Below, piece after piece: positions 3,229 through 63,516 of a DNA stretch of 64,000 nucleotides (its first letter is position 1; every line of letters begins with the position of its first letter). This DNA is from Candidatus Sumerlaeia bacterium (lineage in GTDB: Bacteria; Sumerlaeota; Sumerlaeia; MVZB01). The DNA lies in assembly GCA_039683515.1 (NCBI GenBank), contig JBDKRG010000011.1, positions 14,328 to 78,327 on the forward strand. Direction: 5' to 3'. The translations under genes and the position numbers were made by a program. Below the pieces are notes generated by a model. It ran no database searches, was not told where the DNA came from, and was given only the letters and a program-made list of their open reading frames with translations.

Positions 3229-3912
3229 TCACAAAAACCTCGTCTCCGGGTCGCTCACCGGCTCGATCAAATCCGGGCGGTCTTCGTCGGGCTTGTTCAC
3301 GCGCGCGCTCACGCGGCGGCGGTCCATCGCCTCGGCCGGGTAGGGGGCCAGAAGAGCCTTCACATCGGCCGCGGGGTCGAGCCACCGGCCGTAATGCTCC
3401 GGCCCGACGATCACCGGCATCCGGTCGTGGACCGGCGCGACGAGCGCGTTGGCGCCGGTCGTCAGGATCGTGAACGATTCGATCGTCTCGCCGCCCGGAT
3501 GGCGCCAGCGATCCCACAGGCCGGCCAGCGCAAACAGGGCGTGGCCTTTCAGAAAATAATAATACGGGACGCGCTCGGACGGGGTTTTCTCCCATTCGAA
3601 AAAGCCGTCGGCCGGGATCAGGCAGCGCCGCCGCCTGAACGGCTCGCGGAAGGCGGGCTTTTGGGCCGCCGTCTCGCACTTGGCATTGATCATCCTGGCG
3701 CCGACCGAGGCGTCCCGGGCCCAGCCCGGGATCAGCCCCCAGCGCAGCAGCGTCAGTTGCCGCTTCCCGCCCGGCTCCTGCGCGCGCACGGCGGCGACCC
3801 ACTGCGTCGGCGCGATATTGTAGCGCGCCTCGAGGCCGGCGGGGATTTCGCCGAGCCCGAAGGCCTCGGCCAGCGCCTGCGGCGACTGGGTCTGCGTGAA
3901 GCGTCCGCACAT
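3229..3912 (-). CDS. yedK: SOS-response-associated peptidase (SRAP/YedK, abasic-site processing protein)
   Basis: Starts MCGRF with the catalytic Cys2. 227 aa and SRAP/DUF159-like throughout (WNIAPTQ, HDRMPVIV). Confidence 0.9.
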   Translation of the reverse strand: MCGRFTQTQSPQALAEAFGLGEIPAGLEARYNIAPTQWVAAVRAQEPGGKRQLTLLRWGLIPGWARDASVGARMINAKCETAAQKPAFREPFRRRRCLIPADGFFEWEKTPSERVPYYYFLKGHALFALAGLWDRWRHPGGETIESFTILTTGANALVAPVHDRMPVIVGPEHYGRWLDPAADVKALLAPYPAEAMDRRRVSARVNKPDEDRPDLIEPVSDPETRFL

Positions 3913-4028
3913 GATTCGCGCCCTTCCCGATGGTCACGCCTCATCCTACCACATCCGCGCGGCCGCGGATATGCGCCGAAGGCTTTCAGGCAGGTTGAAA
4001 TGGGATGGTCCGCCCGGATGGAAGGACG

Positions 4029-7427: not shown

Positions 7428-7885
7428 GACTTGCGGGCCCGCCTGCGCGCGCGCTGCTGCACGAACTGGGCGCGGATCGTGGTCTGCAGGCCGCCGCGGA
7501 CGGTCATCTCGGCCTCGACCTCGATCCACTTGGGGTCGAGGACGCGCACGAGGTCCTCGAGGATGCGGTTGGCCAGATGCTCGTAGAACACGCCGACGTT
7601 GCGGAACGAGAGGAGGTAATACTTGAGCGAGCGCAACTCCACGCACACCTTGTCCGGGATATACGTGATATTGAGGGTGCCGAAGTCGGGCAGCCCCGAG
7701 AACGGGCAGACCGACGTGAACTCGTCGGTCGTCGTCGAAATCTCGATGTCGCGGCCGGGATACTGGTACGGGAACGTCTCGAGGGCCGCGCTGTCGATCG
7801 CCTCGAGTCCCTTGAACTCGAGCTTCTTCCCCCGCGCCTCAAACCCCGCCGCCTCGTTCTTCTTCCTTGCCATTGTCATCCCCAT
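7424..7885 (-). CDS. queF: NADPH-dependent 7-cyano-7-deazaguanine reductase QueF (unimodular type)
   Basis: The Cys motif FTSVCPFSGLPDFGTL and the QueF signature KYYLLSFRNVGVFYE are present. 153 aa. Confidence 0.9.
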   Translation of the reverse strand: MGMTMARKKNEAAGFEARGKKLEFKGLEAIDSAALETFPYQYPGRDIEISTTTDEFTSVCPFSGLPDFGTLNITYIPDKVCVELRSLKYYLLSFRNVGVFYEHLANRILEDLVRVLDPKWIEVEAEMTVRGGLQTTIRAQFVQQRARRRARKS

Positions 7886-15806: not shown

Positions 15807-17090
15807 TTGGAAGAGATCAAGGCAAATGCGGAGCGGCGGCAGCGGGCGTTGCTGATCGGGATCCACGCCGAGGGGACCTCGCGCGAGGAGGCCGAGGACC
15901 ACGTCGAGGAGCTGGCGAGCCTGACCGACACGATGGGGGCCGAGGTCGCCGGCATGGAAATCGTGCGGATGGGGCGGCCGACGCCGCATTTCTACCTGGG
16001 CAGCGGCAAGGCCGAGGAGATCAAGGCGATCGCCGAGGCCGAGGAGGCCGACGTGCTGATCTTCGACTTCGACCTGAGCCCGAGCCAGCAGCGCAACTGG
16101 GAAAAATTCACCGAGCGCGCCGTGATCGACCGGCAGGAGGTCATCCTCGACATCTTCGCGAGCCGCGCCCAGACGCGCGAGGCGCGGCTGCAGGTCGGCC
16201 TCGCGCGCATGGAATACAGCCTGCCCCGGCTGCGGCGCGCGTGGACGCACCTGGAGCGCCAGCGCGGCGGCGCGGGCCTGCGCGGCGGCCCCGGCGAACT
16301 CCAACTCGAAGTCGACCGCCGCGCCGCGATGGAGCGCATCGCGCGGTTCAAGCGCGAGCTCAAGCAGGTCCGCATGCAGCGCCAGGTGCAGCGCAAGAGC
16401 CGCTCGACGCGGCCGATCCCGTCGGCGGCGATCGTCGGCTACACCAACGCCGGCAAAAGCTCGCTGCTGCGGGCACTGACCGGCGCCGACGTGTTCATCG
16501 AGGACAAGCTGTTCGCGACGCTCGACCCGACGACGCGCCGCATTGAACTTTCCAACCGCCAGCCGCTGCTGCTGACCGACACCGTGGGGTTCATCCGCAA
16601 GCTGCCGCACGACCTCGTCGAGGCGTTCAAGGCGACGCTGGAAGAGGCCGCCATCGCCGACTTCATCGTCCACGTGCTCGACGTGAGCCACCCCAAGATC
16701 GAGGAGCATTACGCCGTCACGAACGAGGTCCTGAAAGATCTGCACGCCGTGCACAAGAAGACGATCCTCGTCCTGAACAAGGCCGACGTCGACCACGACC
16801 CGCTCATCCACGCGCGGATGGCCCGGCACAACCCGCTGTGCTACGAGGTCTCGACGCACACGGGCCAGGGTCTCGAGGTGCTGCGCGAGGCGATGGCGTC
16901 ACACTTCGTGCTGCCGATGGAACGGTTCAGGCTGCACATCCCGCATGGCCGGTTCGACGTGGTCGACCTCGTCCACCGCGAGGGCGAAGTCCTGACCCAG
17001 AAGCACGACGAAACCGGCGTGTGGCTCGAGGCGGACCTGCCGGTGAGGTTCAAGGCGCAGTTCGAGGAATTTATAAAAGAAAAATCCTAA
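15807..17090 (+). CDS. hflX: GTPase HflX
   Basis: An HflX N-domain is followed by a G-domain (GYTNAGKSSLL, DTVGF, NKAD). TTG start in the track. Confidence 0.9.
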   Translation: MEEIKANAERRQRALLIGIHAEGTSREEAEDHVEELASLTDTMGAEVAGMEIVRMGRPTPHFYLGSGKAEEIKAIAEAEEADVLIFDFDLSPSQQRNWEKFTERAVIDRQEVILDIFASRAQTREARLQVGLARMEYSLPRLRRAWTHLERQRGGAGLRGGPGELQLEVDRRAAMERIARFKRELKQVRMQRQVQRKSRSTRPIPSAAIVGYTNAGKSSLLRALTGADVFIEDKLFATLDPTTRRIELSNRQPLLLTDTVGFIRKLPHDLVEAFKATLEEAAIADFIVHVLDVSHPKIEEHYAVTNEVLKDLHAVHKKTILVLNKADVDHDPLIHARMARHNPLCYEVSTHTGQGLEVLREAMASHFVLPMERFRLHIPHGRFDVVDLVHREGEVLTQKHDETGVWLEADLPVRFKAQFEEFIKEKS

Positions 17091-17160
17091 ATTCGAATAT
17101 CGAAATCCGAATATCGAAATCCTAAACAAATCCGAATCTAGAAATTCAAATAATATTCTC
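17091..17160 (+). repeat. Copy B of the AT-rich intergenic element, directly after the hflX stop
   Basis: attcgaatatcgaaatccgaatatcgaaatcctaaacaaatccgaatctagaaattcaaataatattctc. Confidence 0.6.
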
Positions 17161-17455
17161 GTCGCAGAGGGGCAGAGATTGGCAGAGAGCGCGGAGAAGA
17201 ACATATTTTTCTTCTCTGCAAAACTCTGCGTTCTCTGCGACAAAATCTTGCTTTGAATATATTCCTGTCGCGGAGTGGCAGAGAGCGCAGAGAAAAACAT
17301 TTTTTCTTCTCTGCAAAACTCTGCGTTCTCTGCGACAAAATCTTGTTTTGAATATATTCCTGTCGCGAAGGGGCAGAGAGCGCGGAGAAAAAACATATTT
17401 TTCTTCTCCGCATCTCGGCAAAACTTCGCGTTCTCTGCGACAAAAGTTTTATTCA
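17159..17455. repeat. Tandem array of 3 units of approximately 95-107 bp, each an internal hairpin (GTCGCAGAG...CTCTGCGAC family)
   Basis: The units begin at about 17159, 17267 and 17360. The shared core is gcagagagcgc(g/a)gagaa(a/g)aacat(a)tttttcttctctgcaaaactctgcgttctctgcgacaaaatcttg(c/t)tttgaatatattcc. It lies between the convergent hflX and MFS genes. Confidence 0.85.
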
Positions 17456-20070: not shown

Positions 20071-20150
20071 ATTCCTTAAGCCCGAAATTCGAATATCGAA
20101 ACCCGAAACAAATTCTAATTTAGAAAATTCGAAATTCAAAAAAACTTTTA
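20071..20150 (+). repeat. Copy C of the AT-rich intergenic element, abutting the mgtC start codon (opposite orientation to the transcript)
   Basis: attccttaagcccgaaattcgaatatcgaaacccgaaacaaattctaatttagaaaattcgaaattcaaaaaaac. Confidence 0.6.
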
Positions 20151-25040: not shown

Positions 25041-25130
25041 GGGAAATCAGTCAGAATCAGAAAGAATCGGAGAGAAATTCGAAACAAATCCGAGGAAATA
25101 TTAATAAAAATCATTCAATGAATTAAATGG
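25041..25130 (+). repeat. Copy D of the AT-rich intergenic element, directly after the AKR stop
   Basis: gggaaatcagtcagaatcagaaagaatcggagagaaattcgaaacaaatccgaggaaatattaataaaaatcattcaatgaattaaatgg. Confidence 0.7.
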
Positions 25131-26421: not shown

Positions 26422-29400
26422 GGTGCAGCCCGTGGCCGGGCTTGTTGGCATAAACCAGGTAATACACGACCGGGATGACGCCGAGCGTGAAGACCGTCGA
26501 GGCCGCCACGCCGAAGATCACCGACCAGGCAAGGCCCGAGAAGATCGGGTCGAGCGTGATGACGATGTTGCCGAGCAGCGCCGTGCCGGCCGTTAGAATA
26601 ATCGGCCGCGTGCGGATCGCGCCGGACTGGATGAGCGACTCCTCGAGCGTCAATCCGCGCCTTAATCCGCGGTGAATGAAATCGACGAGGATCACCGAGT
26701 TGCGCACGACGATCCCGGCCAGCGCGATCATCCCGATCATCGCCGTGGCCGTGAAGAAGATCGGATTGGGCAGGCCGGCCACCACGCGCTCGCCGAACAA
26801 TCCAAGGCACCAGAAGCCCGGCATGATACCGATCATGGTGAGCGGGATCGCGAGGATCATGATCGCGGCGATGAGCGCCGAGCCGGTCTGAAGCCAAAGA
26901 ATCAGGTAAATGCCGATGCACGCCGCGCCGAACGCGAGGCCCAGGTCGCGGAATGCGTCGACGGTGATCTTCCACTCCCCTTCCCCGAGCCAGTTGATCG
27001 ACGTGCCGGCGGGAAGGGTCCATGGGATCCCGCCGCCGGGGCGGATGTAGTTGCGGTCGTTGAGAGGTTTGGGGTCAGCCGTCCCTCCGGGACTTTGTTG
27101 CTGGCGTTGATCTTGACCCGCCACTGACGTGGCGGGCTGAAGGCGATCGTCCCTCCGGGACTCGGTTTTCAGCCGGTCGGCGCCGACGTCGAGGACCACG
27201 TCGGCTGGGGCGCGGCCGGCGGTTTCAGCGAAGACGTAGGCGACGCGGCGCAGGTTCTTGTGATAGATCGTCTGGTCGACTTTTGTGTTGCGGATGCGGC
27301 CGACTTCGCCGAGCGGGACCATCGGTTGCGGGGCGTCCTCGAGCTGCGTGCCGACGCGCCGCTTCGTGATCCCGGCGCGGCCCTTGATGTAAAGCGACGA
27401 GAGCGAGTCGGGGTCCGAGCGCATCGGCCGCGACAGGCGCAGGACGATCGGGAGCGGCTGGGCCTCGGTCGGGATGTTCAGATCAGTCGCGGTCTGGCCG
27501 TCGATCGCGAGCGCGAGGGTCTGCGCGACGTCCTCGGTGCCGACGCCCGAAAGCGCGGCCTTTTCCTTGTCGGTGTCGAACACGAGCTTGGTTTGATCGG
27601 CCTCGACCGAGCTGTCGACGTCGACGACGAGCGGCTCTTTCTTCAGGCGCTCCGCGGTGACCAACGCCGCCTTTTGCAATGTTTGATAAGGCGTCTGCGG
27701 GTCGCCGTAGATTTCGGCCGTGACGGTCGAGATCACCGGCGGGCCGGGCGGCACTTCGACGATCTTGATGTTCGCGCCGAACGGCCGCGCGATTTTCTCG
27801 AGGTCGCGGCGGATGCGCAGGATGAGCGCGTGCGACTGCTGCGCGCGCGTTTTTTTGCCGATGAGGCTCACGCGCAGGTCGGCGACGTTCCCGCCCTGGC
27901 GCATGTAGTAGTGGCGCACCATGCCGTTGAAATCCATCGGCGAGGACAAGCCGACGAAACCGGTAAAATTCACGACCTCGGGGACGGTGCGCAGATACTG
28001 GGCGAGCGCGCGCGTGGCGGCCTCGGTGCGCTCCAGCGTGGTGCCCTCGTCCATGTCGACGACGACCTGGAACTCGTTCTTGTTGTCGAACGGGAGCATC
28101 TTGAGCGGCACGAGCCGGAACGCGGGCAGCGCGATGGCCGCGACAAAAAGCAGTCCGATCGCGCCCAGGAACAGCCACGCCAGCGCGCGGCTGCGCAGCA
28201 TCGGGCCCAGCAGCGCGTTGTAGATCTTGTAGAGCGGCGTGCGCTTGACGTCATAGTCCTCGCGGCCGCCGTGGCCGTCGCGCTTGAGGATCACGCGCGC
28301 CAGGAACGGCGTCACGCAGAACGCGACGATGAGGCTCATGCCGATCGTGATCGGGACGTTGAGCGCCATCGGCCGCATGTAGGGGCCCATCATCCCGGTG
28401 ATGAAAAACATCGGGATGAACGAGATGATCACGGCGATGGTGGCGAGGATCAGGGCGGGGCGGATCTCCTGGACGGCCAGCAGGATCGCGCGGCGCGGCG
28501 ACCATTTGCGCATCCGGTAGAAACGCTCGATATTTTCGACGTCGGTGATCGGGTCGTCGACGAGCAATCCCAGGGCGAGAATGAGCGCGAAGAGCGTCAC
28601 GCGGTTGATCGTGTAGCCGGCGACGTAATTGATGAGCAGCGTCGCGCCGTAGCAGACCGGCACGGCGAGCGCGATCACCAGCGCCGCGCGCCAGCCCAGG
28701 ACGAGCCCGACGAAGATCACGACCGTCAGCACGGCGACGGCGAGCGCCTCGACGAGGTCGTTCACCTTTTCGTTGGCCGTCTCGCCGTAGTTGCGCGTGA
28801 TCGTGCAGTGGATGTCGGGCGGCAGGAGGCGCTGCGCGGCGAGCTCGAGGCGCCGCTCGGCGTCGCGGGCGACCCAGACGGCGTTCGTGCCGCGCTGCTT
28901 GGCGACGGCGATCGAGACCGCCGGGTAAAGCCGCGGTTCCTTGTCGGCGCCGGCCGGCCCGAACCCGACCCACGTATAGGTCGTGGCCTCGTCCGGGCCG
29001 TCGATGACGCGCGCGACGTCCTTCAGGTAGACCGGGATGCCGTCGACGACGTTGACGACGAGATTTTCGAGGTCGCGCACGCCGGCGATGAACGAGCCGG
29101 CCTCGATCTTGATGGAGGCGTCGGCCTTGTCGATCGACCCGGCCGGGAGCTGGACGTTGTGCACGCCGAGCGCCCACGCGACCTCGAGCGGGGTCGTGCG
29201 GCGGGCGGCGAGGGCGTCGGGCATGAGCTCGACGCGAACGGCGCGCGGCCGGCCGCCGACCACCGTCACGCGGTTGGTGTTCGGCACGCCCTGGAGCTCG
29301 ATGACGAGTTCCTCGGCGAGGCGGCGCAGCTCGTAGTCGTCGGAGCGCGTGGGGTTGTCGCTCCACAGCGTGGCGATCACGATCGGGACGTCGTCGATCT

Positions 29401-29869: not shown

Positions 29870-30111
29870 TCAACCATTCTCGCCGAAGCATCGGCGAATT
29901 TGCAAGGTTCGTCGGAGGGAAAATGGAAAACCTGACAAAAAAATTGAAAGCAGCAATGCGAACAGAAATACAAACACGAAATTCACGAAAGAAGAGCACG
30001 AAAATGCACGAAAATGTCTACATGCCAAGGATCATTCTTATTTCGTGGGAATTCGTGGTCTTTTTTTCGTGGATTTTCGTGTTTGAATTCGCGTCGGGTC
30101 GAAGACCCGAC

Positions 30112-31170
30112 CTACCATTTGCGGATCAGCTCGGCGTTGCCGACCCACATGACGAAAAAGGGATGTTTTGAAGCGCGGTTCTTGACGTAAATCAGGAACG
30201 GGCGGTTCGCAACAAAATAGGTCGTGGTCATGATGCCTGCACAGGCGGCCACCATCACGGCGGCGGCATCGACGAAGGCGCCGTTCCTGTCGAGCTGGAA
30301 TCGGATCCCCTCGAGTGCGGTCTTGATATACGGCCGATCGAACCGCGTTCCGAGCAGGTTCGCCCCTTCCAGGTCGCTGAAGCTGTGGACGATGCCGAAC
30401 GCGATCTCCGGGACCTGTAGAATATCGAGGTAGTCGAATTCCTTCGCATTGCGGCCCCGTTTGATTTTCTCCTCGACGCCGCCCAACGTGCCCGCGAGCG
30501 TTGAACCCGGAGCCACGCACGCGATCACGATCTGGCACGGGGCCGAGTCGGCGAACAGGTCGACGATAAATTCCCTCGCATGACGCTGATGATTCTGCAC
30601 GGGCATGTAATCGGCATACAAAAGGCGAGGCTGCGCGCGGAGCTCTTCGATTTTCTCAATGTTTTTGTCCCAAAGACCAAATGACCGCACCGGGGCGGAT
30701 TTGCCGGGGCCGTCCTGGAACTCGAGTGGGCGCTCGAAATCGAGATAGGGCAGGGCGAACGGCACCCACGCCTTCATGACGGCGTATGCAAGGAGCGAGT
30801 TGGGCTCGATCGGAACCGACGGCAGCAAATACCCGGCAAGGGCCTCGTCCAGCTCCGCCTGGATTTCAGCGACGTTATGGGCGTCGACGTAATGCGCGGC
30901 GGATCGGCTCTCTTCGGGAAGCATGTCGTCGGGCAGCGGCGGCGCGTGGCGCAGGGCGTCATGGGTCACCCCGCCTCTGTCGAGCCGGATCGGGCCGCCG
31001 ATCACGTCGGTTTCGAGTTTGCGCCAGGCGGTCTCGAACGCGGCCGCCCAGATCGTGTTGCGCTTCCAATTGAGCGGCGCGTTCAATGCCGCGACGACAT
31101 CGGTGCCGGCGAGTTCACAGGAATCGCCATTGAACACCGGCTCGGCGAGGAACGCGTGCTGATCGGCCAT
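30112..31170 (-). CDS. Hypothetical protein with a serpin-like C-terminal region (possible bacterial serpin)
   Basis: The C-terminus NGAFVDAAAVMVAACAGIM...FVANRPFLIYVKNRASKHPFFVMWVGNAELI aligns with the serpin hinge/s1C-s4B-s5B consensus (GTEAAA...F.A.+PF.F.I......LF.G+V). The N-terminal part is less convincing. Confidence 0.4.
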   Translation of the reverse strand: MADQHAFLAEPVFNGDSCELAGTDVVAALNAPLNWKRNTIWAAAFETAWRKLETDVIGGPIRLDRGGVTHDALRHAPPLPDDMLPEESRSAAHYVDAHNVAEIQAELDEALAGYLLPSVPIEPNSLLAYAVMKAWVPFALPYLDFERPLEFQDGPGKSAPVRSFGLWDKNIEKIEELRAQPRLLYADYMPVQNHQRHAREFIVDLFADSAPCQIVIACVAPGSTLAGTLGGVEEKIKRGRNAKEFDYLDILQVPEIAFGIVHSFSDLEGANLLGTRFDRPYIKTALEGIRFQLDRNGAFVDAAAVMVAACAGIMTTTYFVANRPFLIYVKNRASKHPFFVMWVGNAELIRKW

Positions 31171-31282
31171 GATCGATTCCTTTTCTCAAGTAGTTCGGAA
31201 ACAACTCCATACATACGCCAAGACGCCAAGAACGCCAAGTCGAATCCTGGCGTTCTTGGCGTCTTGGCGTAAAAAAAGGCTC

Positions 31283-34532: not shown

Positions 34533-34540
34533 AAGAATGA

Positions 34541-34625
34541 TGAATGATGAGTGATGAATGATGAAAAAAAATAAGGAATGACGATTTCACTCATCATTCC
34601 TCATTCATCATTCATCATTGAATTC
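34541..34625. repeat. GAATGATGA-family inverted repeat/hairpin between the convergent GT4 and PA-rich protein genes (bidirectional terminator candidate)
   Basis: The left arm is gaatgatgaatgatgagtgatgaatgatga. The loop is aaaaaaaataaggaatgacgatttcac. The right arm is tcatcattcctcattcatcattcatcatt. Confidence 0.6.
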
Positions 34626-34628
34626 TGA

Positions 34629-36482
34629 TTATTCTTCCGTTTCCTTGCGGCGCTTGCGCGCTTCGCGCAGCTTTTCCTTCACCTCGACCGCCGACGGACG
34701 GAGCGCCGCCGCGATCGACAGGTGATGGACCGCGCCGGCCCAGTTGGAAATCACGAAATCGCTCATCCCCTTGTGATACTCGCGGCTGAACAGGTCGTCG
34801 CTGCCGCCGGAGCCGTTCTCGGGGCTTCCGCCGTCGACCGGGAGCGACGGCGAAATCGCCGTGGACTGGTCGATCATGGTCTCCGCGTCGTCGAGGACGA
34901 GCGTCTCGTCCTCATGGACGGCGACGGTCGGGGTGACGTCGACCGCGGGCAGGTCCATGGCCGTCGAGGTCTCGTCGAACGCCGTCGACGAGGCCGTCGG
35001 GTTGTCGACGAACCCGCGCGTGGCGGCGTATTCGGGCTGCATGCCCGAGGGCGGCTCCATGATCTCGGGGACGATCGGCTTCAGCATCTCGTCGACATCG
35101 GCGACCGGCTCATCGACCTTGGTTTCCTCCTCGAAGCTCGGCAGGTCGGCAAACTCGATCCGGGTGGTCTGCATTTCCTCGGCGGGTTCCGGCGCGGAGG
35201 CCGCCACGGGCTCGGCTTGCGGTTTGGAGAAGAACGGGTCCTCGGCGGGAACGTCGATGCTGATCGGCGCGATCTCTTCGGCCGGGGCCGAATCGAGCGA
35301 GATCGGGGCCACCGACACGGGCTCGAATTCCGGAATCGTGATCGGACCGGATTCGACCGGGGCCGGCTCGGCGTTGACCGAAGGCAGCTCGATCGGGGCG
35401 TCGTCGAGCTTGATGGGGGCGCTGGCCGTCACCTCGGTCCTGGGCTCGGACTCGGTCTTGAAGAATGAGTCGAGCGAGTCCTGGACCGACGGCTCGGCCT
35501 GCGGCGCGGAGACCCGGGTCGGGTCGGACGCCGAGGCGAACAATGCATCGAGGTTGTCGATTGAGGTCTTGGGCTCCTCGGCCTGGGGCGCGGGCTCGGC
35601 CGGCTTGAAAAGCGAATCCATGTCGCCGAGCGCGGCGGGCTGCGCGGCGGGCTGCGGCTCGAAAGCGTCGAGCGCGGTCTCGGGCTGCGCCGCGGCGGGC
35701 TCGGGCCGGGCCTTGGCGGCGCCCTTGCGGCGCATGATCACGGCGCCGGCGATGGCCAGGACGACCACGCCGATGGCGCCGTACAGGACGGCCGGGCTGG
35801 CGACGAGGTTCTTGATTTTATCCATGGCCGAAGCGCGGCGGACCGGCGGCGGGGGCGGCGGGGCCTGTTCCTCGGCGTCGGCCTTTTCCACGGCGGGCTT
35901 GGCCTGGCCCGCGGGCTTGGCGGAGTCGGCCGGGGCGACGGCAACGGGGCCGGGCTTTTCGGATCCGGAATCGGCCGGGACCGCGGTGGCCGCCACGGCG
36001 CTGGCGGTCGTCTGGCCGACGGACTTCATGATCGACTGGATACTCTCGTTGCGGCGCTTGTCGCGCAGGCGCCGGAACGCCGGCGAGTGTTCGGAGGCGT
36101 CGTCGGTCGGCCTGAGCATGCTCTCGGCGCGCTTGACGTAAAACTCGAAGGCCTGCTCCTCGGGGAACTGCACGGCGGCCGCGCGGCTCAACTCGAGGAC
36201 GGCGTCATACTGGCGGAGCAGGTAGGCGCGCCGGATTTTTTCGCGGGCCTCATTGACGGACTTGAACGTGACCGACGGCGGCGCGGGCGTGGCGGCCGCC
36301 GGCTGGACCTGGTCCGGGCTGATCACCGGCGTGGGTGACGAAGGCGTCTCGTTCTCGACGGCCGGCAACTGAACGACGCCGCCCGGTGAGGGTGAGGCGG
36401 CCGTGGTCGCCGCGCGCGCCGACAGCGGCAACGCCGCCGCCAACGCGAAAATCATCAAGAGAGACAGGGACTTCCTTATCAT
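34629..36482 (-). CDS. Hypothetical Pro/Ala/Glu-rich protein with a signal peptide, a central transmembrane helix and a conserved C-terminal about 55 aa
   Basis: The likely start is MIRKSLSLLMIFALAAALPLSARA. The sequence is mostly low complexity. The transmembrane helix is VLYGAIGVVVLAIAGAVIM. The C-terminus reads LFSREYHKGMSDFVISNWAGAVHHLSIAAAL. Confidence 0.5.
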   Translation of the reverse strand: MIRKSLSLLMIFALAAALPLSARAATTAASPSPGGVVQLPAVENETPSSPTPVISPDQVQPAAATPAPPSVTFKSVNEAREKIRRAYLLRQYDAVLELSRAAAVQFPEEQAFEFYVKRAESMLRPTDDASEHSPAFRRLRDKRRNESIQSIMKSVGQTTASAVAATAVPADSGSEKPGPVAVAPADSAKPAGQAKPAVEKADAEEQAPPPPPPVRRASAMDKIKNLVASPAVLYGAIGVVVLAIAGAVIMRRKGAAKARPEPAAAQPETALDAFEPQPAAQPAALGDMDSLFKPAEPAPQAEEPKTSIDNLDALFASASDPTRVSAPQAEPSVQDSLDSFFKTESEPRTEVTASAPIKLDDAPIELPSVNAEPAPVESGPITIPEFEPVSVAPISLDSAPAEEIAPISIDVPAEDPFFSKPQAEPVAASAPEPAEEMQTTRIEFADLPSFEEETKVDEPVADVDEMLKPIVPEIMEPPSGMQPEYAATRGFVDNPTASSTAFDETSTAMDLPAVDVTPTVAVHEDETLVLDDAETMIDQSTAISPSLPVDGGSPENGSGGSDDLFSREYHKGMSDFVISNWAGAVHHLSIAAALRPSAVEVKEKLREARKRRKETEE

Positions 36483-41565: not shown

Positions 41566-41675
41566 TCATGAAACCCCTGTCAAGGTCAGTAGGTCGCTTC
41601 GGCTCGAAGCGACCTGCGGACAAAAAAGGCGGCGCGCCATTTAGCGCGCCGCCCTCGTCTCTTATCAACGTTCCA

Positions 41676-45630: not shown

Positions 45631-45718
45631 ATCAATCGGAAAGAATCGATCGGAATCGGAAACAAATTCGAAACAAAACCGAGGAAAAAGACGGGAAATA
45701 TTCATAAATAACCATTCC
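45631..45718 (+). repeat. Copy E of the AT-rich intergenic element
   Basis: atcaatcggaaagaatcgatcggaatcggaaacaaattcgaaacaaaaccgaggaaaaagacgggaaatattcataaataaccattcc. Confidence 0.7.
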
Positions 45719-45755
45719 AACAGCGGACTTGAGCTTGAAACCCAAATGTAGCTGT

Positions 45756-45837
45756 CGGAATGATTATTTCTTTCTCGGTAATCTTTTTTTCGATTTTTGT
45801 TTCGGATTTGTGAATGATTCCGCCTGATTCTGGATGA
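45756..45837 (-). repeat. Copy F of the AT-rich element, inverted relative to E and starting at the yicC stop codon
   Basis: The reverse complement reads ...ggaatcattcacaaatccgaaacaaaaatcgaaaaaaagattaccgagaaagaaataatcattcc. E and F are arranged tail-to-tail around about 40 bp. Confidence 0.6.
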
Positions 45838-46743: not shown

Positions 46744-46766
46744 GATCTATCGCTCCCCGCCTGTTC

Positions 46767-46945
46767 GTGCGTCGTGCGTCGTAATCGTAATCGAGATTCG
46801 ATCACCCGTCACCGACTGTAATGCAACTCACTCGTTGGCCGAAAGTGTTTTGTCGAAGAATGGGTCCTATGGGACCGATGGGACCGATGGGACCTATGGG
46901 TTCATAGGATTCGATCAATTCGATTACGATTACGACGCACGACGC
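46767..46945. repeat. Long inverted repeat (arms about 29 bp, CGTGCGTCGTGCGTCGTAATCGTAATCGA) enclosing a loop that contains the 9-mer tandem ATGGGACCG x4
   Basis: The left arm is at 46767-46795 and the right arm at 46917-46945. The loop includes gggtcctatgggaccgatgggaccgatgggacctatggg. Confidence 0.8.
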
Positions 46946-46966
46946 ACGAGCACGAGCACGAATGCG

Positions 46967-48111: not shown

Positions 48112-48153
48112 GAGTCCTGAGTCCTGGGTCCTGGGTCCTGGGTCCTGGGTCCT
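48112..48153. repeat. Heptamer array GAGTCCT x2 + GGGTCCT x4 immediately upstream (6-48 nt) of the AI-2E transporter start
   Basis: gagtcctgagtcctgggtcctgggtcctgggtcctgggtcct. On the coding strand this is AGGACYC x6, each unit containing the SD-like core AGGA. Confidence 0.9.
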
Positions 48154-48240
48154 GAGGACGAAGTTTGTTGGCTCGGGCGGAATTAGTCAAGTCCCTGCTT
48201 AGCGGTGCGTGTCCGTGCCCCGTCCGTGTTTGTCCGTGTA

Positions 48241-48270
48241 CAACAAAAATCCCAGGGCGTTGACCCTGGG
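48241..48270 (-). terminator. Rho-independent terminator of the IclR regulator gene
   Basis: Minus strand: CCCAGGG-tcaacg-CCCTGGG followed by ATTTTTGTTG. Confidence 0.7.
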
Positions 48271-48314
48271 ATTGAATTGTTTCCCTCAGCACTCAGGACT
48301 CAGGACGATTCTTC

Positions 48315-53001: not shown

Positions 53002-54153
53002 ATGGTTCGTTTGATCGGATTTGCGCACCTTATTCTCCTTCTCGTCGCGCCCGCGATCGCCGCCGGCGCCGCTCCGCAACGCGTTAAAACCAAGCTCGAC
53101 GAAGTCGCGCCTTATCGGCGGTTCGTGTGGGTCACGCGCTGGGATTTCCGCAACGCCGAGGACGTCAAGAAAATCTGCTACAACGCCGCCTCGGCGCGGT
53201 TCACCGACATCCTGTTCCAGGTCCGCGGCGAAGGGACGGTTTTCTACAACAGCTCGCTCGAGCCGTGGGCGTGGGAACTGACCGGCAGCGACGCGTCCTC
53301 CACCGGCGCGGACCCGGGCTGGGATCCGCTCGCCACGGCGATCCGCGAAGGTCACCGCTGGGGTCTGCGCGTCCACGCCTATGTGAACGTCCTGCCCGGC
53401 TGGGCGCAGAAAACCAACCCGCCGCGCTCGAGCGGCCAGCTCATCGTCAAGCACCCGGGCTGGTTCATGGTCGACGCCGACGGCGACCCGATGAGCGCCG
53501 GCTGGTATCGCTTCCTCGACCCGGGCCTGCCCGATGTGCGCGCCCACATCGCCGCGCTCGCGGGCGAAATCGCGCGCAATTATGCCGTCGACGGCATCCA
53601 CCTCGACTACATCCGCTACCCGTTCGAGAAGGGCGAATACTCGTATCGCAAGCCGGTCGTGAATCAATTCAAGAAAACCTACGGCGGCACGCCCGGCCGC
53701 AACCCGTCGAGCTGGAACGAATTCCGGCGGGCGCAGGTCACCGAGACCGTGCGCATGATCTCGGCCGCGGCGCGCAAGGCCCACCCCGGCATCGAGATTT
53801 CCGCCTCGGTCGTCGCCGACCCCGACGACGCGCAGGCGGCCTGCCAGCAGCCCGAACTGTGGCTCGGCAAGGGCTACATCGACGCGGCGGTGCCGATGGC
53901 CTACACCGACGACATGGACCGCTTCAACCGCCTGGCCGGGCGCTTTATTCAAAACGGCAACGCCAAGCACACCTGGGTCGGCATCATCGCCACCCCCGAC
54001 AAGAACAGCCACGTCGCCGAGCAGATCCGCCGCCTGAGCCGGCTCAACGTCGGCGGCATCGCGCTCTTCTGCTACAGCGACCTGTTCTACGACCATCGCC
54101 CGACGACGCGCGCCCGCGCCGTCTACGACATCTTCGTGAGCAAGCGAACGTGA
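53002..54153 (+). CDS. Secreted glycoside-hydrolase-like family 10 protein (GHL10/DUF187, YngK-like)
   Basis: Signal peptide. The DGIHLDYIRYP motif is typical of DUF187. Confidence 0.75.
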   Translation: MVRLIGFAHLILLLVAPAIAAGAAPQRVKTKLDEVAPYRRFVWVTRWDFRNAEDVKKICYNAASARFTDILFQVRGEGTVFYNSSLEPWAWELTGSDASSTGADPGWDPLATAIREGHRWGLRVHAYVNVLPGWAQKTNPPRSSGQLIVKHPGWFMVDADGDPMSAGWYRFLDPGLPDVRAHIAALAGEIARNYAVDGIHLDYIRYPFEKGEYSYRKPVVNQFKKTYGGTPGRNPSSWNEFRRAQVTETVRMISAAARKAHPGIEISASVVADPDDAQAACQQPELWLGKGYIDAAVPMAYTDDMDRFNRLAGRFIQNGNAKHTWVGIIATPDKNSHVAEQIRRLSRLNVGGIALFCYSDLFYDHRPTTRARAVYDIFVSKRT

Positions 54154-55709
54154 CCTATCACCCGGCGGAAAGCTTCTGGGAGTGGCGCGAGCGCATCAAG
54201 CGATTGATGGCCGGCGGCGCGGCGTCGGAGAAAACCGCCGAGAGAAAAAACGATTACCTGCCCGCCCTGGGCGTCGCCCCGCTCAACGAAAAACTCATCC
54301 AGACGATCTGGGCGCAGCAGCTGATCCAGGGCTCCGGCCTGCGCCTCGCCGACGGCCGACCGCTGCGCGTCCTCGACCCGGGCCGCGCCAGCGGCGACGG
54401 GCCGGACTTCCAGGGCGCGCGCCTGCTCGTCGATGACCAATCGGTCGAGGGCGACATCGAAATCCACATCGACGCATCCGGCTGGCAGGCGCACGGCCAC
54501 CACCGCGACCTCGATTACAACCGCGTCGCGCTGCACGTGGTTCTGCATATCGACGACGGCGCGGCGTTCGACCTGGCGCACAACGGCTCGAAAATCCCGC
54601 GCCTCGAAATCGAAAAATACATCTTCCCGGACCTCGACACGCTGCGCCGCTCGCTCACCCCCGACGATTTCGCCTACGCCCAGCCGGCCGAGGCCGGCCG
54701 CTGCCAGACCGTCCTCATGAGCCTGGACCACCTCGTGTTGGCCGACTTCCTCGACCGCGCCGGCGACGAGCGGCTCGTGGCCAAGATGCAGCGGCTTCAG
54801 GAGCAGGCCGCGCAGACCGACATCGAACAGGTGTTCTACCAATCGATGATGATGTCGCTCGGGGGATCGGGATCGGCGAAGACGCTCTATTACCTGCTCG
54901 CCAAACGCACTCCCCTCGCCGAGTTGTCCGATTTCGCCGCCGAGCTGCCCGAGCAGGAGCGCCCGACGGCGATCGAGGCGCTGCTGCTGGCCGTCGCCGG
55001 GCTGCTGCCGAACGCCTTGGAGATGGTCGACGCGCCGGCCGAGTCGATCGAGAGGCGCGACAAGCTCGCCGGATACTGGGAGAAATGGCACTCCTACTGG
55101 TGCGACCGGCTCATCCCGGCCAATCGGCGCTGGTTCCAGGGAATGCGCCCGGTGAATTTCCCGACGCGGCGGCTGGCCGGCGTCGCGGTGATTCTTTCGC
55201 GCGCGATCAATCGCAAGAAATTTCCGCTGGCCGATTTGCTCGGCCACATTCGCGCCGGCCAGGGCGCGCTGGAAGCCTCCGGCCCGCGCAAGAAGCGCCA
55301 CCCGGTCGTCGAGGATCTGGTCGAGTGGTTCCGCGTCGGCGGCGAGGGGCATTTCTGGGGCAATCACTACTCGTTCACGGCCAAGCCGGCCGGCCGCACG
55401 ATGGACCTGATCGGCGAAGGCGCCGCGCTGTCGCTGGTCCTGAACGCGCTCGCCCCGGCGGCGCTCCTTGCGGCGAGAAGAGCGAACGACGAACAGCTCG
55501 AGTCGGCCGTCTGCCGGCTCTACGCGCTGATCCCGCCGCTGCAAAGCAACCACATCACCGAGTTCATGACGAAACGCCTGTTCGGCGACGCCGACTGGGC
55601 GCGCGGCCTGATCAACACCGAGCGCCGCCGCCAGGCCCTTTTCCAAATCTTCCACACCTGCTGCAACGCCGAAGAACGCAACTGCGAGGCGTGCTATTTC
55701 CGGAAGTAG
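54150..55709 (+). CDS. DUF2851-like hypothetical protein (519 aa) with a C-terminal Cys cluster
   Basis: GTG start overlapping the GHL10 stop (GTGA). The track ORF 53127..55709 is an out-of-frame 5' extension. The C-terminus is CCNAEERNCEACYF. Confidence 0.5.
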   Translation: MTYHPAESFWEWRERIKRLMAGGAASEKTAERKNDYLPALGVAPLNEKLIQTIWAQQLIQGSGLRLADGRPLRVLDPGRASGDGPDFQGARLLVDDQSVEGDIEIHIDASGWQAHGHHRDLDYNRVALHVVLHIDDGAAFDLAHNGSKIPRLEIEKYIFPDLDTLRRSLTPDDFAYAQPAEAGRCQTVLMSLDHLVLADFLDRAGDERLVAKMQRLQEQAAQTDIEQVFYQSMMMSLGGSGSAKTLYYLLAKRTPLAELSDFAAELPEQERPTAIEALLLAVAGLLPNALEMVDAPAESIERRDKLAGYWEKWHSYWCDRLIPANRRWFQGMRPVNFPTRRLAGVAVILSRAINRKKFPLADLLGHIRAGQGALEASGPRKKRHPVVEDLVEWFRVGGEGHFWGNHYSFTAKPAGRTMDLIGEGAALSLVLNALAPAALLAARRANDEQLESAVCRLYALIPPLQSNHITEFMTKRLFGDADWARGLINTERRRQALFQIFHTCCNAEERNCEACYFRK

Positions 55710-55718
55710 GTCGCTTCA

Positions 55719-55847
55719 ATGCAGTAGCCCGAGCGTCAGCGAGGGACTCGGCCGATACGCAATCAGAACCGCAAGTTGAAATTCGAAATCTGAACGAATT
55801 GAATTCCACTAAGGCGAAGTCCCTCGCTGACGCTCGGGCTACTGCAT
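55719..55847. mobile_element. MITE-like palindromic element: perfect 30-bp terminal inverted repeats flanking a 69-nt AT-richer loop
   Basis: The left arm is ATGCAGTAGCCCGAGCGTCAGCGAGGGACT (55719-55748). The right arm is its exact reverse complement (55818-55847). The loop contains gaaattcgaaatctgaacgaattgaattcc, related to the AT-rich element family. Confidence 0.7.
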
Positions 55848-55922
55848 GAGTCGGCTCAGAGAGCCGACCTACCAGTTGTGCCCGCCTGCCCCTCATGCTA
55901 GCCTGATCCGGGGAGTGCGTCG

Positions 55923-57164
55923 ATGCTGCATGGGTGGCAATACCTGCGTCCGGAGGATCTCGAGACGATCGCGCGCGGGATCGCCGACGGCGAAGTCCAC
56001 GGCGGGCCGTTCCACATCGAGCTGGACTGGGTCGACGCCTGCAATGCCAAGTGCTTCTTCTGCGCCAGCTCGGCCGTGCACTCGGACAAAACCCTGAGCT
56101 GGGCGCGCGCCCACGAAATTCTCGAGGAGGCGCGCCGCGGCGGCCTGCGCAGCATCCGCCTCGCCGGCGGCGGCGAGCCGCTGCTGCACCCGAACCTCCC
56201 CGACCTGGCCGACTGGCTCGCCGCCAACGACATCGTCCTCGACCAGGTCAACACCAACGGGATCGCGCTGAACGACTCGCGCATCGCCGCGCTCATGGTC
56301 CCGCGGATCGGCGAGGTCCACGTGAGCCTCAACTACAGCGACGCCGAGTCCTACGCCGAGGGGATGCGCCTCCCGGCCCAGGTTTTCGACAAGGTTTGCG
56401 AGGGCATTTCCCGTCTCGACGAGGCGCGGCGGCGCGAAGGCTCGCGGCTCGGCCGGCTCAGCGTCCAGTTCTTCGTCTACAAGCGCACGCTGGGCCAGAT
56501 CGGCCGGATGTATGAGCTCGGCCGCCGGCTCGGCACCGACCGGATCAGTTTCATGGAGCTCTACGGCATCGACCCGGCGCTGCAATATTGCGAGTCGGAC
56601 GTCCCCGCGATCGCCGCGCAAATGCGCGAGATCATGCAGGACGACAACGAAGGGCGAATCGAAAGCCTGCTGTGGTCGCGCGGAGCCGGCCCGGCAATCA
56701 AGGCGATCGAGCGCGAGCTCCGGCCGCAGAAGCGCGAGGAAACGATCGACTTCAACACGCGCTTCTGCTTCATCGCGTGGTATTCGATGACGGTGATCGG
56801 GAGCGAGGCGGTCTACCCGTGCTGCTTCTTCTTCGACGAGCCGAAGGGGCTGGACGACCTGAACGGCAAATCGCTGGACGAGGTCTGGCGCGGGCCGCAT
56901 TACCGGCGGATGCGCGAGGAATTCCGGCGGTGGTTCCTGACCGGGATCCGCGTCCCGATGTTCAGCCGCCGCCACCGGCACATGAAGCTCGCCTGCGCCA
57001 GCCACAGCGCCTGCCCGCTGACGATCTCCCTGGCCGACGAATCGTTTTACGCCATGGTGAACGAACGGCTTGAAAAAGAGCGCGGAAAAATCGGCACGCG
57101 GATCAAGGTTATCCCCGAAAAGCTCGGCCGGACGATCCTCGACGCCCTCCGCCGCGGGAAATAA
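55923..57164 (+). CDS. Radical SAM/SPASM-domain protein (maturase-like), substrate unknown
   Basis: The N-terminal CX3CX2C is DACNAKCFFC. A C-terminal Cys-rich SPASM-like region is present (YPCCFFFDEP...CASHSACP). Confidence 0.85.
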   Translation: MLHGWQYLRPEDLETIARGIADGEVHGGPFHIELDWVDACNAKCFFCASSAVHSDKTLSWARAHEILEEARRGGLRSIRLAGGGEPLLHPNLPDLADWLAANDIVLDQVNTNGIALNDSRIAALMVPRIGEVHVSLNYSDAESYAEGMRLPAQVFDKVCEGISRLDEARRREGSRLGRLSVQFFVYKRTLGQIGRMYELGRRLGTDRISFMELYGIDPALQYCESDVPAIAAQMREIMQDDNEGRIESLLWSRGAGPAIKAIERELRPQKREETIDFNTRFCFIAWYSMTVIGSEAVYPCCFFFDEPKGLDDLNGKSLDEVWRGPHYRRMREEFRRWFLTGIRVPMFSRRHRHMKLACASHSACPLTISLADESFYAMVNERLEKERGKIGTRIKVIPEKLGRTILDALRRGK

Positions 57165-58245: not shown

Positions 58246-59460
58246 ATGATGGCTGCCTGGACGCGAACCCGACCGAATCCGGAACCGAGGAAATTCATGC
58301 GCGGACCGAATCACGAGAGTTTTCCGCGAACGCGGGCGCAACTCGAAGAGATCGAGGATTTCACCCTTGCCCCGTACGCGATCCGCGCCGGCCGCAGCCA
58401 CGGCCGCGACGTCGAGGAGCAGCCGGCCGCCATGCGCACCGAATTCCAGCGCGACCGCGACCGCATCCTGCACTGCGCCGCGTTCCGCCGGCTCGAATAC
58501 AAGACCCAGGTCTTCGTCACGCACGAGGGGGACTACTTCCGCACGCGCCTGACCCACACGCTCGAAGTGGCGCAGATCGCCCGCAGCATCGCGCGCACCC
58601 TCGGGCTGAATTCGGATCTGATCGAGGCCATTTCGCTTGCCCACGACCTCGGACACACGCCGTTCGGCCACACCGGCGAGTCGGTCCTGAACGAGCTTCT
58701 CGCCGGCGAAGGGGGCTTCGAGCACAACGCCCAGAGCCTGCGCGTCGTCGAGGTCCTCGAGGAGCGATTCTGCGACAGGCCCGGCCTCAACCTGACGTGG
58801 GAAGTGCGCGAGGGGATCGCCCGCCACTCCAAATCCAACACGCCGGCCGTCACGCGATACGTCAACGGCAACCAGCCCTCGCTCGAGGCGCAGGTCGCCG
58901 ACCTCGCCGACGAGATCGCCTACAACCACCACGACCTCGACGACGCGCTCGGGATGGGGCTCCTCCCCGTCGATGCGCTGCGCGACGTCGGCTGGCTGTG
59001 GGAGATCTGGCGGACCGAGGCCGAGCGCTTCCCGGATTCCAGCCCGCGCCACCGCCAGAACCGGTTCCTCGGCGCGCTGATCGAAACCATGATCGACGAC
59101 ACGATCGAGGCGACCGCCGACGAGCTCAACCGAAACGGGATCGACTCGCCCGAGGCGGTGCTGGCGTTCCCCAGGCGGCTCGCGGTCTTCAGCCCGGCCG
59201 TGCGCGTTCATCAGGACGGCCTGCGCAAGTTCCTGCTCGAGCGCGTCTACCACCACCCCAGGACGCTCAAGATGCAGTACAAGGCGGCCGGGTTCTTCAA
59301 GAAGCTGTTCGAGCTCTACCGCGAGCAGCCCGACCTGCTCCCCGTCGAATGCCAGGCCATGATCGGGAAATGGGGGCTCATGCGCGTCCTGACCGATTAC
59401 CTCTCGGGGATGACCGACCGGATGTGCATGGAGCAGTATAAGGAACATTTTGAATCGTAA
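58246..59460 (+). CDS. dGTPase-family HD-domain phosphohydrolase
   Basis: RDRDRILHCAAFRRLEYKTQVF...THTLEVAQIARSIA...HDLGHTPFGH. The probable start is the internal MRGPNHESF. Confidence 0.9.
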   Translation: MMAAWTRTRPNPEPRKFMRGPNHESFPRTRAQLEEIEDFTLAPYAIRAGRSHGRDVEEQPAAMRTEFQRDRDRILHCAAFRRLEYKTQVFVTHEGDYFRTRLTHTLEVAQIARSIARTLGLNSDLIEAISLAHDLGHTPFGHTGESVLNELLAGEGGFEHNAQSLRVVEVLEERFCDRPGLNLTWEVREGIARHSKSNTPAVTRYVNGNQPSLEAQVADLADEIAYNHHDLDDALGMGLLPVDALRDVGWLWEIWRTEAERFPDSSPRHRQNRFLGALIETMIDDTIEATADELNRNGIDSPEAVLAFPRRLAVFSPAVRVHQDGLRKFLLERVYHHPRTLKMQYKAAGFFKKLFELYREQPDLLPVECQAMIGKWGLMRVLTDYLSGMTDRMCMEQYKEHFES

Positions 59461-59550
59461 TCGGTTAGAATCGGAAAGAATCGGCCGGAAATTCGAACCA
59501 AAAATTGAGGAAAAAGAAAAAACCAAATTAAGATAATGATTCAAAAGGAG
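59461..59550 (+). repeat. Copy G of the AT-rich intergenic element, spanning from the dGTPase stop to the SD of the CE7 esterase gene
   Basis: tcggttagaatcggaaagaatcggccggaaattcgaaccaaaaattgaggaaaaagaaaaaaccaaattaagataatgattcaaaaggag. Confidence 0.7.
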
Positions 59551-63334: not shown

Positions 63335-63450
63335 ATGAAAGACGAATTGAATGATGAATGATGAGTGATGAGTGATGAAAGATGAAAGGAAAACCGAATC
63401 GGGCGGTTGGCGATCCGGGCCTTTTTCATCATTCATCACTCATCATTCAT
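63335..63450. repeat. GAATGATGA-family inverted repeat in the divergent intergenic region between the sxtK-like operon and the PP2C gene
   Basis: gatgaatgatgagtgatgagtgatgaaagatgaaagg ... cgggcggttggcgatccgggcctttt ... tcatcattcatcactcatcattcatcattcc. Confidence 0.6.
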
Positions 63451-63516
63451 CATTCCTCCTCATTCTCATTTCAAGGTTGCCGATCGTGGCCCACTATGTT
63501 GTAATCTTTACCGACA

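Follow-up and report, generated by a model that had tools for sequence, protein, structure and literature searches.

The 129-nt palindrome at positions 55719-55847 of a 64,000-nt stretch of a Candidatus Sumerlaeia metagenome-assembled genome (MAG; the whole stretch is called the window below) is best read as a head-to-head inverted doublet of a ~30-nt repetitive extragenic palindromic (REP)-like repeat of the Class 3 type. Its two units point their foot ends outward and enclose a trapped, unique spacer. We put the probability of this reading, which takes the repeat for a variant of the Class 3 REP-like sequences and thus for a selfish or domesticated repeat of a known kind, at roughly two in three.

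A palindrome with perfect arms

The element is intergenic and has the following parts.

55719..55748, + strand: left arm, ATGCAGTAGCCCGAGCGTCAGCGAGGGACT, a copy of the dispersed word ATGCAGTAGCCCGAGCGTCAGCGAGGGAC(T), with its CAGTA/GTAG foot end outward
55749..55817, no strand: loop or spacer of 69 nt, AT-richer, unique, containing GAAATTCGAAAT at 55778-55789
55818..55847, - strand: right arm, the exact reverse complement of the left arm and second copy of the word; arm kept in relatives
55728..55745, + strand: mini-hairpin of the left arm, CCC-GA-GC-GTCA-GC-GA-GGG, identified from its Class 3 architecture and compensatory changes
55821..55838, - strand: mini-hairpin of the right arm, CCC-GA-GC-GTCA-GC-GA-GGG on the - strand, identified on the same basis

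These coordinates, the exact complementarity of the arms and the independent unitigs described below bear out the first-pass annotation, which had reported a 129-nt palindrome with perfect 30-nt arms and a 69-nt loop. Complementarity from arm to arm reaches 35 nt at 94%, and window shuffles gave no arm match at three or fewer mismatches. The 129-mer is predicted to fold at -77 kcal/mol as plus-strand RNA, -82.6 as minus-strand RNA and -47.1 as DNA (z-scores of -12.3, -12.3 and -10.9, respectively); none of 200 shuffles equalled the fold, and a perfect 30-bp stem is predicted for both strands. Rfam holds no match to the element at its gathering thresholds. When Rfam was scanned by E-value, the sole match was the plant microRNA precursor MIR529, at 25.6 bits where the threshold is 75; we discarded it as spurious because it reflects the long hairpin only.

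An inverted repeat of this kind could be an assembly or fold-back artefact, that is, a false inverted duplication, and de Bruijn assemblers do break at this repeat. Indeed, the Logan unitig L111 (SRR15035646) terminates at ...ATGCAGTAGCCCGAGCGTCAGCGAGGGAC, the inner end of the left arm, and unitig L001 of the same run starts at GTCCCTCGCTGACGC..., the inner end of the right arm. Both breaks are expected, since a k=31 graph splits at a 30-nt inverted repeat. However, the two unitigs are independent and each joins its arm to the correct unique flank, a second sample (SRR32314411) shows the same right arm and the same break, and the ends of the arms coincide exactly with the limits of a word that other genomes also carry. 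We thus see next to no probability in an artefact.

The arm is a dispersed intergenic word

RecJ of the window is 100% identical to a protein that NCBI assigns to a Candidatus Sumerlaeia MAG. A related MAG, the GTDB representative "bacterium bin.378" (GCA_021372575.1), shares the synteny of the locus (GHL10, DUF2851, radical SAM, a hypothetical gene, a response regulator and an HD-domain gene), with protein identities to the window of 76% for RecJ, 75% for DUF2851 and 67% for the radical SAM protein. In this genome ten copies match the 29-mer ATGCAGTAGCCCGAGCGTCAGCGAGGGAC exactly, one of which is truncated by the start of its contig, and there are four further copies with one to three mismatches and two cores without the foot (the 5' part). 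The resulting copy number of at least 14 is a lower bound, the copies having been reached through the exact core only. All of them are intergenic and occur in both orientations relative to genes, with unrelated flanks and varying distances to gene starts and ends. About 13 are singlets, 29/29 identical, against at most one decayed doublet, and the 29-mer is likewise 29/29 identical between both window arms and about ten of the bin.378 copies. In three to four copies of this genome away from the orthologous site, the ATGCAG word is preceded at 2-17 nt by a GCCGAACGCGGCAT word, forming a mosaic that resembles bacterial interspersed mosaic elements (BIMEs).

Beyond bin.378, the central 20-mer core of the word, GCCCGAGCGTCAGCGAGGGA, was found exactly at 43 loci in a GTDB scan with one genome per species, and at 57 further loci in a metagenome scan. 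A lower-GC metagenomic lineage (Ga0116193, Ga0208826) carries the word as ATGCAG[T/A]AGCCC..., often in inverted doublets. The exact 27-mer GCAGTAGCCCGAGCGTCAGCGAGGGAC had no match in JGI metagenomes, and the 20-nt core had none in viral contigs. The core motif was not found in print in the papers covered by a literature search, the few matches being unrelated primers, and a search on Sumerlaeota repeats returned nothing relevant. In 34 distinct contexts drawn from several lineages, the 5' edge of the word is sharp (ATGCAG[T/A]A) and its 3' edge softer (GGGA[C/T]T..CC). None of these contexts has a target-site duplication of 5 nt or more, the few matches of 3-4 nt being at chance level, and none is seen in the flanks of the window doublet (...GCTTCA / element / GAGTCG...).

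Overall, the arm is dispersed and not specific to its locus. The first-pass annotation had named the reverse, a unique arm with the same sequence at orthologous loci, as the mark of a local regulatory hairpin; we found at least 14 copies in bin.378, and orthologous loci that differ, with one arm only at the orthologous site in that genome.

The unit shares the architecture of Class 3 REP-like sequences

A single unit consists of the foot (CAGTA) followed by CCC-GA-GC-GTCA-GC-GA-GGG, ~30 nt in all, according to the pattern stem-GA-2bp-GNNA-2bp-GA-stem, and this mini-hairpin is the sole fold of a single unit. According to Quentin et al. 2018 (PMC6006769), Class 3 REP-like sequences flank Class 3 Y1 HuH genes, which are related to IS200 and to REP-associated tyrosine transposases (RAYTs), in Planctomycetes, Acidobacteria and Legionella. 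Their units have the same ((((..((....))..)))) architecture with flanking GA as the window arm. The published L. pneumophila unit reads CCGAG-CCGC-GA-CC-GTAA-GG-GA-GCGG, and that of S. usitatus (Solibacter usitatus, ~600 copies per genome) reads CAGAG-CCGC-GA-CC-GTCA-GG-GA-GCG. The P. limnophilus unit, ACGAGCCGGAAGCGTCAGCGACGGG (PMC6006769 Table S1), has AGCGTCAGCGA in common with the window arm. Weak secondary structure and the dispersal of copies in intergenic DNA are further points of likeness.

We compared 16 distinct unit variants, both published and found here. In a set that was partly pre-selected for complementarity, 100% of the cells pair and four of the five pairs change on both sides; none of 500 shuffles reaches this level, and slid registers collapse. 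Compensatory changes also occur within two natural heterodimers, which tie the word directly to the Class 3 family. In those at L096 and L099 (L numbers denote the loci examined), one arm is CTGAA-GCCC-GA-GC-GTCA-GC-GA-GGGA, which contains the core, and the reverse complement of the partner arm is CTGAA-CCGC-GA-CC-GTCA-GG-GA-GCGG. Both have a CTGA-A foot, and the 20 nt CCGCGACCGTCAGGGAGCGG of the partner are identical to a S. usitatus Class 3 unit published in PMC6006769. The two arms of the L081 heterodimer differ in their inner stems, GC/GC as against CC/GG. Since the changes in heterodimers preserve each mini-hairpin and weaken the pairing between arms, what is conserved, through compensatory changes, is the mini-hairpin of each unit and not the long stem between the arms.

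The word also departs from Class 3 in several respects. It has a conserved 5' extension, ATG, and an outer stem of only 3 bp. Its host phylum, Sumerlaeota, is not among the hosts reported in PMC6006769, the consulted parts of which do not speak of inverted doublets whose arms are long and perfect, and no Class 3 gene was found beside any copy.

The GTAG-tagged REPs, which include SMAG and BIME units (PMC3733652), offer a second comparison. They too are 20-40 bp long, intergenic and multi-copy, occurring as singlets, dimers and mosaics, and the window has a GTAG at 55724-55727, directly 5' of the CCC stem. However, GTAG REPs have well-folding stems of 6-13 bp, whereas the window unit has 3+2 Watson-Crick pairs around a GA/AG internal loop and a z-score of ~0. 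The GTAG may be coincidental, because the variants of the unit family differ at that position (GAAG, GCAG, CGTA).

Doublets of one polarity arose many times

The 20-nt core forms the arms of hairpins in at least 12 independent doublets across phyla, with unrelated loops of 2-250 nt, and the foot end points outward in 12/12 independent doublets. At L064, in the lower-GC lineage, 34-nt perfect arms enclose a loop of 113 nt. The reverse polarity was seen only in a gammaproteobacterial family, in which the core is the apex of a different hairpin. Doublets of the same polarity with unrelated loops have arisen many times.

Pairs with the foot outside correspond to head-to-head (HH) dimers, the preferred type of REP dimer, whose spacers are usually 20-100 bp (Di Nocera et al. 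2013, PMC3733652). The window doublet shares this polarity, and its 69-nt spacer falls within the usual range. However, HH dimers tend to have conserved spacers (PMC3733652), whereas those of the present family are unrelated.

We also considered the REP doublets forming hairpins (REPINs), in which the doublet replicates as a unit, doublets outnumber singlets and singlets are decayed (Bertels & Rainey 2011, PMC3116915). Like the window doublet, REPINs combine two inverted REP-type units with a spacer into ~100-130 nt that fold up as a single long hairpin, be it as single-stranded DNA or as RNA, and the spacing of 69 nt is close to the 71 bp of the GI-type REPIN of SBW25 (PMC3116915). In contrast to REPINs, the singlets of bin.378 dominate and are undecayed, the window spacer is unique, loops elsewhere are unrelated, and the two arms seem to differ in age. 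We thus rejected a REPIN in the strict sense.

When the 69-nt loop was compared with the window and all 111 loci by blastn-short, it matched only fragments of 11-17 nt at chance level, and neither the loop nor the 129-mer was found there a second time. As the loop has no counterpart elsewhere, repetition is confined to the arms and does not extend to the 129-nt unit. This bears on the proposal in the first-pass annotation of a miniature inverted-repeat transposable element (MITE), which would be a deletion derivative of a DDE-transposase insertion sequence (IS) with 30-nt terminal inverted repeats, mobilised as a 129-nt unit. The element is indeed small, non-coding and intergenic, its terminal inverted repeats are perfect and of a typical length, and a DDE_Tnp_1 IS is inserted in the same intergenic region of a relative (L103, described below). 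The proposal did not hold: the doublet and the 34 contexts lack target-site duplications, the interior is not conserved, the supposed terminal repeat occurs mainly as a singlet, and doublets elsewhere enclose unrelated loops. Moreover, the loci examined contain neither a parental IS or other autonomous element with these ends nor a transposase gene between long-range inverted copies. A strict MITE was thus rejected, and we regard a classical MITE as very improbable; the broader idea of the first-pass annotation, that the palindrome resembles a mobile element, is partly right.

A second proposal links the loop to an AT-rich family of the window. The 12-mer GAAATTCGAAAT is present in the loop, and three other sites in the window match it at one mismatch, compared with 0.38 expected. 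The likeness hardly extends beyond the 12-mer, being limited to a weak AATCAGAA...GAAATTCGAAA resemblance. The family, which may be related to promoters or 5' untranslated regions (UTRs), is found at these sites.

25045-25098, 45634-45687, 59459-59512, 17087-17144 and 20083-20126: AT-rich intergenic family (AATCGGAAAGAATCG...GAAATTCGAAAC...)

The locus and its history in relatives

The doublet lies between two genes of the same strand and is followed by a second, smaller hairpin and a conserved segment.

54150..55709, + strand: DUF2851 family gene, upstream neighbour (Pfam PF11013, E 3e-56; exact product on Logan contig L111)
55850..55872, - strand: canonical GTAG-type REP-like hairpin, GTAG-GTCGGCTC-TCT-GAGCCGAC, 2 nt from the right arm and on the same strand as it
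55893..55915, + strand: conserved segment upstream of the radical SAM gene, TCATGCTAGCCTGAT..GGGGAG, 8-30 nt before its start
55923..57164, + strand: radical SAM/SPASM gene, downstream neighbour (Pfam PF04055 and PF13186; syntenic orthologs)

The DUF2851 stop ends at 55709, leaving 9 nt before the element, and 75 nt separate the element from the radical SAM ATG at 55923. The small hairpin at 55850-55872 folds as DNA at -9 kcal/mol (z -4.85) and is kept in two relatives (L104 and L102), with changes confined to its loop. The segment TCATGCTAGCCTGAT..GGGGAG is the only intergenic part conserved across all five orthologous loci. It is probably the 5' UTR or ribosome-binding site of the radical SAM gene and possibly promoter-proximal, and it is a candidate leader or regulatory element of that gene.

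In a relative with 93% identity (L104, from the second sample), the right arm is identical to that of the window, and the full inverted repeat is suggested there too, because the unitig breaks at the same base. At the orthologous site in bin.378 (L102), only a right-arm copy is present (5889-5917, two mismatches, 27/29), and it is recognisable though the surrounding intergenic DNA cannot be aligned with the window; the left arm is absent. No arm occurs in a 76% relative (L105) or in another 67% relative (L103), and in more distant Sumerlaeia the synteny is lost and the word is absent. A DUF2851 homolog search for the left side in the 93% and 76% relatives returned nothing closer than bin.378 (75%). 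Since the right arm, the small hairpin and the proximal segment TCATGCTAGCCTGAT..GGGGAG recur in relatives, they are the older conserved parts of the region. The left arm was either gained in the lineage of the window or lost in bin.378.

Other insertions were seen at the same site. At ~5919-6000 of L102, two inverted copies of a different REP-type word (ATGCCGCTTTCGGCGAACGCGGCCTACC ... GGTAGGCCGCTTTCGCCGAAAGCGGCAT), with GTAG ends pointing inward, are inserted between the right-arm copy and the small hairpin; it is this word, GCCGAACGCGGCAT, that forms the mosaics with other bin.378 copies described above. The hairpin that follows this pair is the same as in the window, GAGTCGGCTC-nnn-GAGCCGACCTACC. 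In L103 (GCA_032942435.1), DUF2851 and the radical SAM gene are separated at 3661-5712 by a DUF6290 gene and an insertion sequence (DDE_Tnp_1), and the intergenic region of the locus is accordingly a recurrent insertion target.

The position of the doublet would also fit a regulatory hairpin that arose at this very locus for the expression of DUF2851 and the radical SAM gene, be it a terminator, an attenuator or an RNase III site, and that resembles a repeat only incidentally. It begins and ends close to the two genes, its predicted stem is extremely stable, and the 93% relative keeps the right arm, with a break that suggests the full repeat. Yet the arm is multi-copy at unrelated loci, where its copies do not occupy equivalent regulatory positions, and bin.378 has one arm and L103 and L105 none, despite conserved flanking genes and a conserved proximal upstream segment. 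The doublet also has no U-tract and no terminator-like site. This explanation, largely refuted by the dispersed copies, is improbable, and a later co-option of the doublet for regulation fits the Class 3 reading as well.

Three further candidates for the element were set aside. An intrinsic terminator was ruled out, there being no U-tract, and an integron attC site was ruled out by inspection, there being no RYYYAAC/GTTRRRY boxes. A mini-ORF (open reading frame) ATG-CAG-TAG at the start of the word was dropped, as nothing supported it.

How the doublet may have formed, and what speaks against it

If the Class 3 reading is correct, a Class-3-type Y1 HuH enzyme, whose gene would lie elsewhere in the genome, would recognise the units in the form of folded single-stranded DNA and copy them, a route that would explain the lack of target duplications. 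Just past the DUF2851 stop codon, a second unit would have landed, or been kept, at 69 nt from the first and in the opposite orientation. Read-through transcripts of DUF2851 would then fold into the perfect 30-bp stem, which could serve as a barrier at the 3' end or stabilise it, and be a substrate of RNase III. The stem would separate DUF2851 from the radical SAM gene, whose conserved upstream segment lies downstream of the element. Processing by RNase III is thus a plausible role, as is an insulation of the radical SAM gene, because any transcript would form the perfect 30-bp stem.

Besides the partial pre-selection of the covariation set, several results weigh against this reading. First, a single 30-mer folds no better than shuffled sequence, at -3.0 kcal/mol as DNA (z +0.22) and -8.8 as RNA (z -0.85), and is therefore not a canonical REP palindrome. 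Second, the foot differs: that of Class 3 is CnGA-G, and that of the window and bin.378 is CAGT-A, offset by one extra base. Sister variants have the feet CAGA-A (seven contexts) and CTGA-A (L096). Third, a covariance model built from 11 published Class 3 units only (PMC6006769) aligned both arms over all 28 positions and ranked them third and fourth in the window, at a score of 14.9 bits (E ~0.29) that is level with two matches in coding regions. Fourth, no second arm locus occurs in the 64-kb window or in ~4 kb of extra source sequence (L106, reached via RecJ, and L111). Fifth, a consensus scan of 55400-56100 found neither a sigma-70-like promoter nor an intrinsic-terminator-like site. Finally, two regex screens of ~7,000 ORF segments found no Y1/HuH transposase ORF in the window or the 111 loci (~800 kb); the Class 3 TnpA-Y1 hallmarks given in PMC6006769 are the HuH motif NHVH and the Y motif YV[VI]xEQ. 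A phmmer search of the same sequences with an approximate E. coli RayT query had no match either; for a single-copy gene at the level of whole genomes, these negatives carry no information. We infer the Y1 HuH enzyme purely from family resemblance, on which its link to the doublet rests.

That no transposase was found also favours an alternative without mobility, in which the word is the site of a chromosomal DNA- or RNA-binding factor, such as a regulator or a nucleoid-type protein, is selected in intergenic DNA, and forms a palindromic double site in the doublet. The 29/29 identity of about ten bin.378 copies and both arms, at a distance where orthologous proteins are 67-76% identical, agrees with such a site. 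The orthologous right arm is still 27/29 amid unalignable intergenic DNA, and singlets have decayed no further than doublets, against what the REPIN model predicts (PMC3116915). However, the copies lie in both orientations and at variable distances to gene starts and ends, and close relatives differ in presence or absence at the same locus. The unit also clusters with other REP-type hairpins in mosaic arrays and agrees with a family of repeats that has previously been linked to Y1 HuH genes, and recognition by a cognate HuH enzyme would equally predict strong sequence constraint. We consider a host-factor site unlikely.

The core in other repeat families

The 20-nt core also occurs in head-to-tail tandem arrays with periods of 48 and 58 nt, each copy inside a local hairpin, for example GTCCGCAT-core-GCGGAC. 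In Proteobacteria, the 20-mer sits at the apex or on a side branch of larger, quite different repeats. One type is CCCTCTCCCCC-core-AGGTGGGAGAGGG and another GTCATTCCGGG-core-GCCCGGAATCCATAACC, and the other arm of the second type has a different insert at the equivalent position. The core thus behaves like a module common to several repeat families. The loci are as follows.

L091 1761-1828, L083 ~7640-7700, L065 1479-1556 and L079 ~1839: tandem arrays of the core
L009, L010, L017, L023, L025, L030, L033 and L044: core loci in the Gammaproteobacteria MAG MFD00731
L003, L037, L043, L051 and others: core loci in Alphaproteobacteria

A more far-reaching reading, which we hold to be distinctly unlikely, takes the core GCCCGAGCGTCAGCGAGGGA for a cross-phylum module and assumes a directed process that lays an inverted copy near an existing unit, either by a HuH-type enzyme or by replication-coupled template switching at the mini-hairpin; alternatively, the unit would be kept purely for a host function, with no transposase. 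If true, arbitrary intergenic DNA would repeatedly be enclosed in long perfect hairpins, which the host would use as transcript barriers. It would also imply a general "hairpin-making" activity distinct from REPIN replication, in a family so active or so constrained that 29/29 identity persists between genera.

Other repeats in the window

The window has several other long intergenic inverted repeats, with unrelated arms. Examples include 33-nt arms at 97% around a 125-nt loop and perfect 24-nt arms, TACGCCAAGACGCCAAGAACGCCA, around a 10-nt loop. Many arms are built of short tandem motifs, such as (GATGAAT)n, (GTCCTGA)n and (CGTAAT)n(CGTGCGT)n, and some of these words also occur in bin.378. 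Long hairpins of low-complexity words look like a general intergenic feature in this lineage.

46762-46952, 31214-31271, 63349-63458, 34533-34636, 48114-48306 and 45642-45831: long intergenic inverted repeats with unrelated arms
30093-30115 (-), 41589-41613 (+) and 55850-55872 (-): canonical GTAG REP-like hairpins, GTAG followed by GTCG..., with perfect stems of 8-9 bp and z ~-5, from a scan for GTAG plus stem

The last group suggests a second, classical REP family in these genomes, possibly with a RAYT. Such hairpins are among the further intergenic words that the window and bin.378 have in common, and a 35-mer around 41579-41613 is present in both (L028). At 17177-17445, a unit of ~95 nt is repeated three times in tandem at 93% identity, and each copy contains an internal inverted repeat, TTCTCTGCG...CGCAGAGAA. 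The word TTCTCTGCGACAAAA also occurs upstream of the radical SAM gene in L103, and in bin.378. At 27117-27162 (+), the window has an Rfam match to the Acido-Lenti-1 small RNA (48 bits against a gathering score of 37), here in a Sumerlaeia genome.

Implications

The Class 3 reading would extend a little-studied family of REP-like sequences, that with the CnGA foot, to the uncultured phylum Sumerlaeota. The natural heterodimers contribute compensatory changes that point to the mini-hairpin as the conserved structure. The features that deviate from REPINs, namely foot-outward doublets with unrelated spacers and perfectly conserved singlets, could guide experiments on Class 3 HuH copying. In practical terms, the units break k-mer assemblies at predictable points. 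For the host, a perfect 30-bp stem right after a stop codon may affect the expression of the neighbouring genes.

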